From assembly GCF_030013595.1 (NCBI RefSeq), contig NZ_CP122768.1: a stretch of DNA of 64,000 bases. One strand, 5' to 3'. The DNA is from Escherichia coli (GTDB lineage Bacteria; Pseudomonadota; Gammaproteobacteria; Enterobacterales; Enterobacteriaceae). Under the pieces are notes generated by a model. That model had not been told where the DNA came from. It saw only the letters and a list, made by a program, of their open reading frames with translations, and made no database searches. Positions 28,381 through 28,660 of this stretch are shown piece after piece. The position numbers and the translations under genes are program-made. How positions within the stretch are numbered: the first letter of the stretch is position 1; each line of letters begins with the position of its first letter.

Positions 28381-28660
28381 GTCGCATCAGGCGCTGGTTG
28401 TCGGATGCGGCGTGAACGCCTTATCCGACCTACGGTTCGGATTTGTAGGCCTGATAAGACGCGGCAGCGTCGCATCAGGCGCTGGCTGTCGGATGCGGCG
28501 TGAACGCCTTATCCGACCTACGGTTCGGATTTGTAGGCCTGATAAGACGCGGCAGCGTCGCATCAGGCGCTGGCTGTCGGATGCGGCGTGAACGCCTTAT
28601 CCGACCTACGGTTCGGGTTTGTAGGCCTGATAAGACGCGGCAGCGTCGCATCAGGCAATG
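28381..28660. repeat. BIME array: about three tandem copies of an 88-bp unit, each carrying two inverted REP elements
   Basis: Unit gtcgcatcaggcgctgg[t/c]tgtcggatgcggcgtgaacgccttatccgacctacggttcgg[a/g]tttgtaggcctgataagacgcggcagc recurs at 28381, 28469, 28557; ORF-track ORFs here are repeat artefacts. Confidence 0.9.

Follow-up and report, generated by a model that had tools for sequence, protein, structure and literature searches.

The colanic-acid (cps) operon of Escherichia coli raises a simple question: what occupies two unusually long gaps between its genes, and does the occupant matter to the expression of the genes on either side? The window, i.e. the whole 64,000-nucleotide stretch of DNA that was analysed, contains an occupied cpsB-cpsG gap of 368 bp and an occupied wzxC-wcaK gap of 565 bp, and the other junctions in this part of the operon are at most 54 bp or overlapping. 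The original prediction held that both gaps are filled with tandem REP-pair units inside a single transcription unit, that these units may serve as mRNA stability or partial-termination elements, and that they create spurious open reading frames (ORFs) on both strands.

Both arrays lie within the operon headed by a JUMPstart RNA at 13965-14003 (+; Rfam RF01707, 57.3 bits, gathering threshold 35), which contains the ops element GGCGGTAGCGTG at 13992-14003 and represents the leader of the colanic-acid (wza...wcaM) operon. The genes wza to wcaM constitute one operon. The ops pattern occurred twice against 0.1 occurrences expected, and a second JUMPstart RNA with ops GGCGGTAGCGTG was present at 40062-40100 (+), ahead of the O-antigen cluster. 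Gene coordinates come from RefSeq-annotated genomes that match the window exactly over the array concerned, namely MEI003 for array A (cpsB-cpsG) and CV839-06 for array B (wzxC-wcaK). Array A is preceded by cpsB/manC (26942-28378, +, with the stop codon TAA at 28376-28378; ORF and RefSeq annotation of a 100%-identical genome) and followed by cpsG/manB (28747-30117, +; ORF and RefSeq annotation mapped from MEI003), and the names manC and manB given originally correspond to cpsB and cpsG, respectively. Next is wcaJ (30172-31566; RefSeq annotation of identical genomes), while array B is bounded by wzxC upstream (31568-33046, +) and wcaK downstream (33612-34892, +), both identified as ORFs and in the RefSeq annotation. 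All genes in this part of the cps operon are co-oriented.

No sigma-70-like site was detected on either strand in 26500-35500, and an internal promoter in the arrays was rejected on that basis. Nine terminator-like sites were found in the same interval, none of them within either array. In both arrays no T-run followed a REP hairpin, the linker or the GTAG/CTAC tetranucleotide coming next, and an intrinsic (Rho-independent) terminator within the arrays was likewise rejected. Any 'partial termination' could not be intrinsic, because no REP hairpin precedes a U-run. The placement of both arrays in a single transcription unit is consistent with the JUMPstart/ops leader, the co-orientation of the genes, the tight junctions and the lack of promoter-like or terminator-like sites in the arrays. 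Elsewhere in the window, a histidine operon leader (60404-60527, -; RF00514, 131.6 bits) and the sRNA STnc240 (63266-63340, +; RF02074, 68.2 bits) fit the usual his - O-antigen - cps chromosomal neighbourhood.

Array A spans 28380-28656 (+) and consists of three BIME-2 units of 88 bp, as identified from TRF, identity at a lag of 88 and RNA folding. TRF returned a period of 88 bp with 3.1 copies, 98% matches, 0 indels and a score of 540. Self-identity of the array was 98.9% at lag 88 and 98.0% at lag 176, compared to a median of 25.6% over lags 20-219, and two coding segments used as controls never exceeded 35.5% identity. The tandem REP-pair units proposed for the manC-manB gap were confirmed by TRF, the lag test and REP probes, as was the estimate of about three copies of an 88-bp unit at 28381-28660, the limits of which agree to within 1-4 nt. 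Each unit comprises, in order, a tail-to-tail linker GCTGG(T/C)T, a Y REP, an 11-nt head-to-head linker GGTTCGG(A/G)TTT and an inverted Z2 REP.

The array opens with a 13-nt Z2 REP tail, CGTCGCATCAGGC (28380-28392, +; sequence and K-12 alignment), which starts 1 nt past the cpsB stop codon and, as a direct repeat, delimits the array. According to the alignment with K-12, this tail is the only REP remnant in the 0-unit allele of that strain. The first Y REP (28400-28433, +; hairpin of -18.4 kcal/mol) carries its CTAC tag at the 3' end on the mRNA strand and has its foot 21 nt after the cpsB stop, and the first Z2 REP (28445-28480, -) matches the Z2 probe with 0 mismatches and forms a hairpin of -20.5 kcal/mol. 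The second and third Y REPs (28488-28521 and 28576-28609, both +) were located by the Y REP probe and hairpin, and the second and third Z2 REPs (28533-28568 and 28621-28656, both -) by the Z2 probe and hairpin. In place of GCCGGAT/ATCCGGC, the Y REPs of array A have the stem GTCGGAT/ATCCGAC, a compensatory variant specific to this locus that leaves the hairpin intact. RNA of the entire cpsB-cpsG gap folds at -187 kcal/mol (z=-8.5 relative to shuffles).

Array B spans 33074-33551 (+) and contains five BIME-2 units of 96-97 bp (TRF, REP probes and RNA folding). TRF described a 96/97-bp unit present in 4.9 copies with 91-93% matches and a score of approximately 800, and alternatively a 193-bp super-unit; self-identity was 78.9% at lag 193 and 67.5% at lag 96, compared to a median of approximately 25% over all lags. 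Periodicity was clear in both arrays when set against the coding controls. The expectation of about five copies at 33075-33552 was upheld, with limits again within 1-4 nt, but the 88-bp period did not carry over: the array B unit is longer because its head-to-head linker measures 19 nt rather than 11 nt. The unit order is a Y REP, the 19-nt head-to-head linker, an inverted Z2 REP and a tail-to-tail linker ACTGAAT. Y REPs are at 33075-33109, 33171-33205, 33268-33302, 33364-33398 and 33460-33494 (+), and Z2 REPs at 33129-33164, 33225-33260, 33322-33357, 33418-33453 and 33514-33550 (-). The first and fourth Y REPs are decayed, with weaker stems of -8.6 and -12.9 kcal/mol, respectively; the former is the first hairpin of the array and begins approximately 28 nt after the wzxC stop. 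RNA of the wzxC-wcaK gap folds at -299 kcal/mol (z=-12.7 relative to shuffles).

The REP is defined as an imperfect palindrome of 30-40 nt with a GTAG tetranucleotide at the foot of its stem, and BIME-2 as 'composed of z2 and y' in tandem copies with a short linker S, the copy number of which varies among strains (PMC3333891). All 16 REPs in the two arrays carry GTAG (Z2, + strand) or its complement CTAC (Y, + strand) adjoining the stem. Their hairpins contain an internal mismatch and range from -8.6 to -21.3 kcal/mol on the mRNA strand, mostly from -18 to -21. On the + strand the Y REPs end in CCTAC and the inverted Z2 REPs begin with GTAGGCCTGATAAG. The Z2 probe gave eight matches with 0-1 mismatches, a further array copy at 33514-33550 having a loop 1 nt longer, and the Y core probe gave six matches with 0-1 mismatches; 0 matches to the REP consensus probes were expected from shuffles, and only one other site, at 4716-4805, was found outside the arrays. 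The Y(+) Z2(-) order recurs three times in array A and five times in array B, with tail-to-tail linkers of approximately 7 nt in both and head-to-head linkers as given above. Both arrays are extragenic, lying between annotated RefSeq coding sequences (CDSs), and a query containing the array had matches in 5,425 of 5,426 genomes, at a median of 12 sites in each. Both arrays are BIME-2 elements by virtue of alternating inverse Y and Z2 REPs, linkers that are short by length, tandem arrangement and strain-variable copy number. This identification is real but ordinary, and the element is already known.

Two other classes of repeat were considered and rejected. BIME-1 combines Y with Z1 in a single copy with a long L linker bearing an IHF site, whereas here the partner is Z2 (CCTGAT...ATCAGG, 0-1 mismatches), the linkers are only 11 and 19 nt with no long IHF-binding linker, and the arrays are multi-copy. 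A CRISPR-like array was rejected, since its 'spacers' would be REPs and recur as well. Outside the cps operon, the site at 4716-4805 is another single Y-Z2 REP pair, and a lone Z2-type REP head, GTAGGCCTGATAAG, is located at 11668-11681. In the copy of the K-12 reference record that was consulted, no REP annotation is listed.

Mechanically called ORFs of 52-113 amino acids run across both arrays on both strands, and their translations are Arg-rich REP repeats. No CDS is annotated within the arrays by PGAP, and the ORFs are spurious, as had been suggested; coding potential was rejected on these same grounds. Furthermore, the mechanical ORF of cpsG runs upstream to an ATG at 28684, into the algC leader (annotated start 28747), and that of wcaK runs upstream to a GTG at 33501, into array B (annotated start 33612). 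These over-extensions (28684-28746 and 33501-33611) represent a trap for start-codon calling.

The remainder of the cpsB-cpsG gap, outside the BIME, is taken up by an algC RNA motif at 28693-28742 (+; Rfam RF02929, 78.2 bits, gathering threshold 33.8). The motif forms the leader of cpsG/manB, lies directly upstream of its start and takes in the Shine-Dalgarno region. It was invariant in the E. coli alleles examined, which carry 0-3 BIME units, and is kept in five Enterobacter species with one compensatory pair change (GGCCG/CGGUC to GGCCA/UGGUC). An alternative stem, UUGGCC/GGCCAA, overlaps the modelled algC hairpin. This motif is the more interesting element of the cpsB-cpsG gap when compared to array A.

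In order to establish the copy number of both arrays across strains, 57 genomes (cpsB-cpsG) and 55 genomes (wzxC-wcaK) were drawn from 5,426 E. coli genomes. Sampling was at even steps of the BLAST ranking of a clinically biased collection, and the frequencies are accordingly rough. At cpsB-cpsG, three units were present in 2/57 genomes, two units in 6/57 and a single unit in 33/57, while 10/57 had 0 units with the 13-nt Z2 tail (K-12 type) and 6/57 had a different, REP-free sequence; 16 of the 57 (approximately 28%) thus lack a complete REP. At wzxC-wcaK, the gap was empty in 6 of 55 (approximately 11%), and one, two, three, four, five and six pairs were present in 8, 17 (K-12 and MEI003 among them), 2, 7, 6 and 3 genomes, respectively, two of the six-pair alleles being verified with a gap of 661 bp; an unrelated 161-bp spacer was present in 4 and the allele was unclear in 2. 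The comparison among strains that had been proposed at the outset therefore yields a sampled range of 0-3 units for array A and 0-6 for array B, with K-12 at 0 and 2. Length classes at both loci differ by exact unit steps. Sequences were checked for the REP-free allele and each of the 0-, 1-, 2- and 3-unit alleles at array A, and for gaps of 72, 179, 275, 565 and 661 bp at array B, where the strain counts rest on gap lengths and on REP, Y and Z2 probe matches.

Within clones the copy number was uniform: four O157:H7 isolates were alike, as were four or five K-12 derivatives, so copy number marks lineages rather than behaving as a hypermutable switch. The 3-unit allele of array A aligns in one piece in the complete genomes of MEI003, Ec1120, FDAARGOS_772 and O104:H4 FDAARGOS_349, and the 5-unit allele of array B does so in CV839-06, AMSCJX02, AR_0119 and others. 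Because independent complete genomes carry identical large alleles, assembly duplication, the artefact raised as a caveat to the original prediction, is ruled out.

Several further alleles were encountered in this comparison. In strain CAVP888 (L009 398-558) the unrelated 161-bp spacer replaces array B. This spacer is present in approximately 275 of 5,426 genomes, BL21 included, and holds a GC-rich palindrome, CCCTCTCCCCAGGGGGCGAGGGGA; the core of the spacer also matches other loci in some genomes. Since some strains carry this palindromic spacer, the wzxC-wcaK gap hosts different small repeats in different lineages. The REP-free cpsB-cpsG allele (strain HS4, L005 380-480; approximately 10% of sampled genomes) has a different 5' part, CAGTTGAATAATCAACCGGAATAAATCTCCGGC, which forms two small hairpins and is joined to the conserved algC leader. 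The cpsB-cpsG segment of the window (27800-29300) is 100% identical to MEI003, and the wzxC-wcaK segment (32650-33950) is 100% identical to CV839-06, while MEI003 has two pairs at the latter site. The region of the O-antigen locus recombines often. The window is a mosaic with respect to sequenced genomes, consistent with high recombination around that locus.

The alleles themselves give some insight into how the arrays change. The 3-unit allele in the window equals the 2-unit allele of JE86 plus a chimeric middle unit, in which the left-hand marker is that of unit 2 and the right-hand one that of unit 1. A chimeric unit of this kind is the product that would be expected of one out-of-register exchange within a Y REP, a mechanism that is inferred from this one unit. 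The tail-only allele of K-12 is best read as collapse of the array between its terminal direct repeats. Arrays would then grow and shrink by whole units through out-of-register exchange or slippage between units; a published alternative for the gain and loss of units is TnpA-REP/RAYT activity, i.e. RAYT-mediated amplification. An imperfect 8-bp direct repeat, CGACAACG ... CGGCAACG (33060-33075 and 33552-33570), borders array B on both sides, and the empty-site allele (strain B1, L008 398-469, 72-bp gap) has one CGGCAACG only. The flanking repeat may be either a footprint resembling a target duplication or the result of microhomology-mediated deletion.

A cross-genus scan with the algC-leader pattern returned five Enterobacter loci and no Escherichia or Salmonella, and the comparison is limited to Enterobacter accordingly. 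In five Enterobacter species, the cpsB-cpsG gap contains a single genus-specific REP, GCCCGGTGGCGCTGCGCTTACCGGGC followed by CTAC, in the orientation of the E. coli Y REP and with its stem 14 nt after the cpsB stop, and then the conserved algC leader (loci L011, L013, L014 and L015; e.g. the gap at 3330-3439 in L011). Since Enterobacter also carries a REP in this gap, REP occupancy of the cpsB-cpsG gap is either old or recurrent. In the same genomes no REP was found in the wzxC-wcaK gap, which measures only 15 bp, and occupancy of that gap is not common to Enterobacter. At 14 nt, the Enterobacter REP falls within the 15 nt over which effects on translation of the preceding gene have been reported.

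The best explanation overall, to which a probability of roughly 0.8 is assigned, is that both gaps hold BIME-2 arrays that gain and lose whole units, are polymorphic between lineages, and would have a modulatory role as barriers to mRNA decay or as gyrase sites. REP hairpins withstand exonucleases and serve as markers of stable 3' ends (PMC6061677), and a block to 3'->5' exonucleases is attributed to Newbury 1987 as cited in PMC6061677; a link between BIMEs and attenuation is attributed to Espeli 2001 as cited in PMC12306157 and PMC6061677. The originally suggested action on mRNA stability or partial termination matches these published REP and BIME roles and is plausible. Under the favoured explanation the arrays would be transcribed into the polycistronic cps mRNA as intra-operon elements, with array A giving six and array B ten stable hairpins of approximately -18 to -21 kcal/mol each. 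Such hairpins would block 3'->5' exonucleases, and the upstream segments (wza...cpsB and cpsG...wzxC) would outlast the downstream ones. At the RNA level, the most likely consequence is that the hairpins modestly shield the upstream mRNA segments from decay. At the DNA level the arrays may also be binding sites for gyrase. These effects would be modulatory and not required: because REP-free and 0-unit alleles occur frequently where the operon is intact, any function of the arrays is dispensable.

The alternative that fares best, though it is judged less likely than not, places the main role at the DNA level, with the arrays as strong, transcription-independent gyrase sites that absorb positive supercoils in the approximately 24-kb Rcs-induced operon. 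BIME-2 elements are over-represented among genome-wide gyrase cleavage sites, the signal persists or rises with rifampicin, and Y is cut more often than Z2 (PMC6379681); the arrays hold three and five Y REPs. However, gyrase cleaves only 'a subset of BIME-2' (PMC6379681), the genes of the cps arrays are not mentioned in the available part of the Topo-seq supplement text of that study, and K-12 has no unit at site A. This reading is compatible with the best explanation and not exclusive of it.

A more ambitious alternative is that the arrays are selected intercistronic regulators, with copy number governing the amount of transcription or mRNA that arrives at the downstream genes, through Rho-dependent attenuation in the long untranslated stretches or graded protection from decay, and thereby tuning the stoichiometry of early versus late cps enzymes in each lineage. 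The untranslated RNA of the two gaps is 368 and 565 nt long, array B is followed at approximately 33564-33618 by an unstructured stretch rich in C and poor in G, and the REP in the same orientation in the cpsB-cpsG gap of five Enterobacter species suggests long-term occupancy. The Enterobacter wzxC-wcaK gap, however, is 15 bp without REP, and zero-unit and REP-free alleles are common in E. coli where the operon is intact. There are also no intrinsic terminators within the arrays, the array RNA has more G than C and is nearly fully paired, properties that suit it poorly to Rho loading, and the operon has a JUMPstart/ops leader. The ops element recruits RfaH, which protects RNA polymerase against Rho. 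Attenuation through Rho is less likely because ops recruits RfaH and because the array RNA lacks C-rich single-stranded stretches, and the proposal of selected regulators is judged unlikely. More speculative still, and quite improbable, is the proposal that BIME-2 copy number at both gaps is a heritable, lineage-specific colanic-acid rheostat, and that the REP found in both Escherichia and Enterobacter, of a different type in each, reflects a selected 'punctuation mark' upstream of the algC leader. If so, each Y-Z2 pair would shift the balance of upstream to downstream mRNA (by decay protection, or by attenuation that escapes RfaH), and lineages with 0, 1, 3 and 6 units would differ in the ratios of GDP-fucose-pathway enzymes to flippase to late transferases.

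The distance from each stop codon to the first hairpin bears on the possibility that the first REP stalls terminating ribosomes and lowers CpsB or WzxC via mRNA cleavage or trans-translation (the Liang-Rudd-Deutscher mechanism). According to Liang, Rudd and Deutscher 2015 as related in PMC12306157, a REP located less than 16 nt beyond a stop codon lowers translation of the gene that precedes it; REP-derived sequence begins 1 nt after the cpsB stop, and the Enterobacter stem begins 14 nt after it. The first complete hairpins, however, are 21 nt (cpsB) and approximately 28 nt (wzxC) from the stop, beyond the 15-nt rule, and the long-range pairing that would bring structure to the stop was present in the MFE structure only and absent from the centroid, leaving ribosome stalling very unlikely.

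Antisense transcripts resembling the nucleoid-associated naRNA4, a discrete RNA that acts together with HU, appear more improbable again. Six tail-to-tail REP pairs, each of them in the minus-strand direction, matched RF02564 with 71.6-79.7 bits (gathering threshold 59.5), but each match spans one Z2-Y pair, which any BIME-2 unit should match by sequence, and the mRNA-sense strand scored 42-55 bits, below gathering. The resemblance arises because naRNA4 and the array units are both BIME-2 units. No promoter-like site occurs on either strand in 26500-35500, and nothing points to antisense transcription. Finally, the notion that the arrays are an assembly artefact, or that the ORFs of 52-113 amino acids crossing them are real small protein genes, can be dismissed, given identical alleles in independent complete genomes, lengths in exact unit multiples, and Arg-rich REP translations that vanish in strains with fewer units and that PGAP leaves without annotation.

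The arrays account for the two unusually long cps gaps, the Arg-rich spurious ORFs and the over-extended cpsG and wcaK ORFs, and their significance is mainly one of annotation hygiene. They also provide a handy length marker for typing the often-recombining cps/O-antigen region. If copy number does tune expression, the natural series of 0-6 units would be a ready system for studying the general role of BIMEs inside operons.

Among known systems, the closest in kind is BIME-2 itself (Gilson/Bachellier nomenclature; Ton-Hoang et al. 2012, PMC3333891). The cps arrays share its alternation of Y and Z2, its intergenic location and its near-identical units at each locus, and show no substantial difference, the GTCGGAT/ATCCGAC stem variant in the Y REPs of array A being a feature of their own. 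The naRNA4/REP325 RNA (RF02564) has the same sequence and two-hairpin structure as one tail-to-tail Y-Z2 pair, whereas matches above threshold in the arrays are antisense to the operon. In the intercistronic REPs of malE-malF and hisJ-hisQ (Newbury et al. 1987 and Stern et al. 1988, as described in PMC6061677 and PMC3158064), REP hairpins likewise lie between a stop codon and the next gene of an operon. Those elements, comprising one to three REPs, are related in the same sources to have been found experimentally to stabilise upstream mRNA and to give differential expression; the cps arrays are much longer. Polymorphism of BIMEs between E. coli strains is classic (Bachellier 1997, as cited in PMC3158064), and Iguchi et al. 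2011 (PLoS One 6:e23250, PMC3158064) reported REP-containing indels at cpsG-cpsB and wcaK-wzxC, which match the present arrays in both sites, in the kind of element and in the variation between strains by insertion or deletion. The arrays and their strain variation are thus already known. That study covered six O157 strains with up to four REPs, whereas the alleles in the window are larger, with 6 and 10 REPs; the additions made here are the range of alleles in samples from 5,426 genomes, the signature of unequal exchange and the comparison with Enterobacter.
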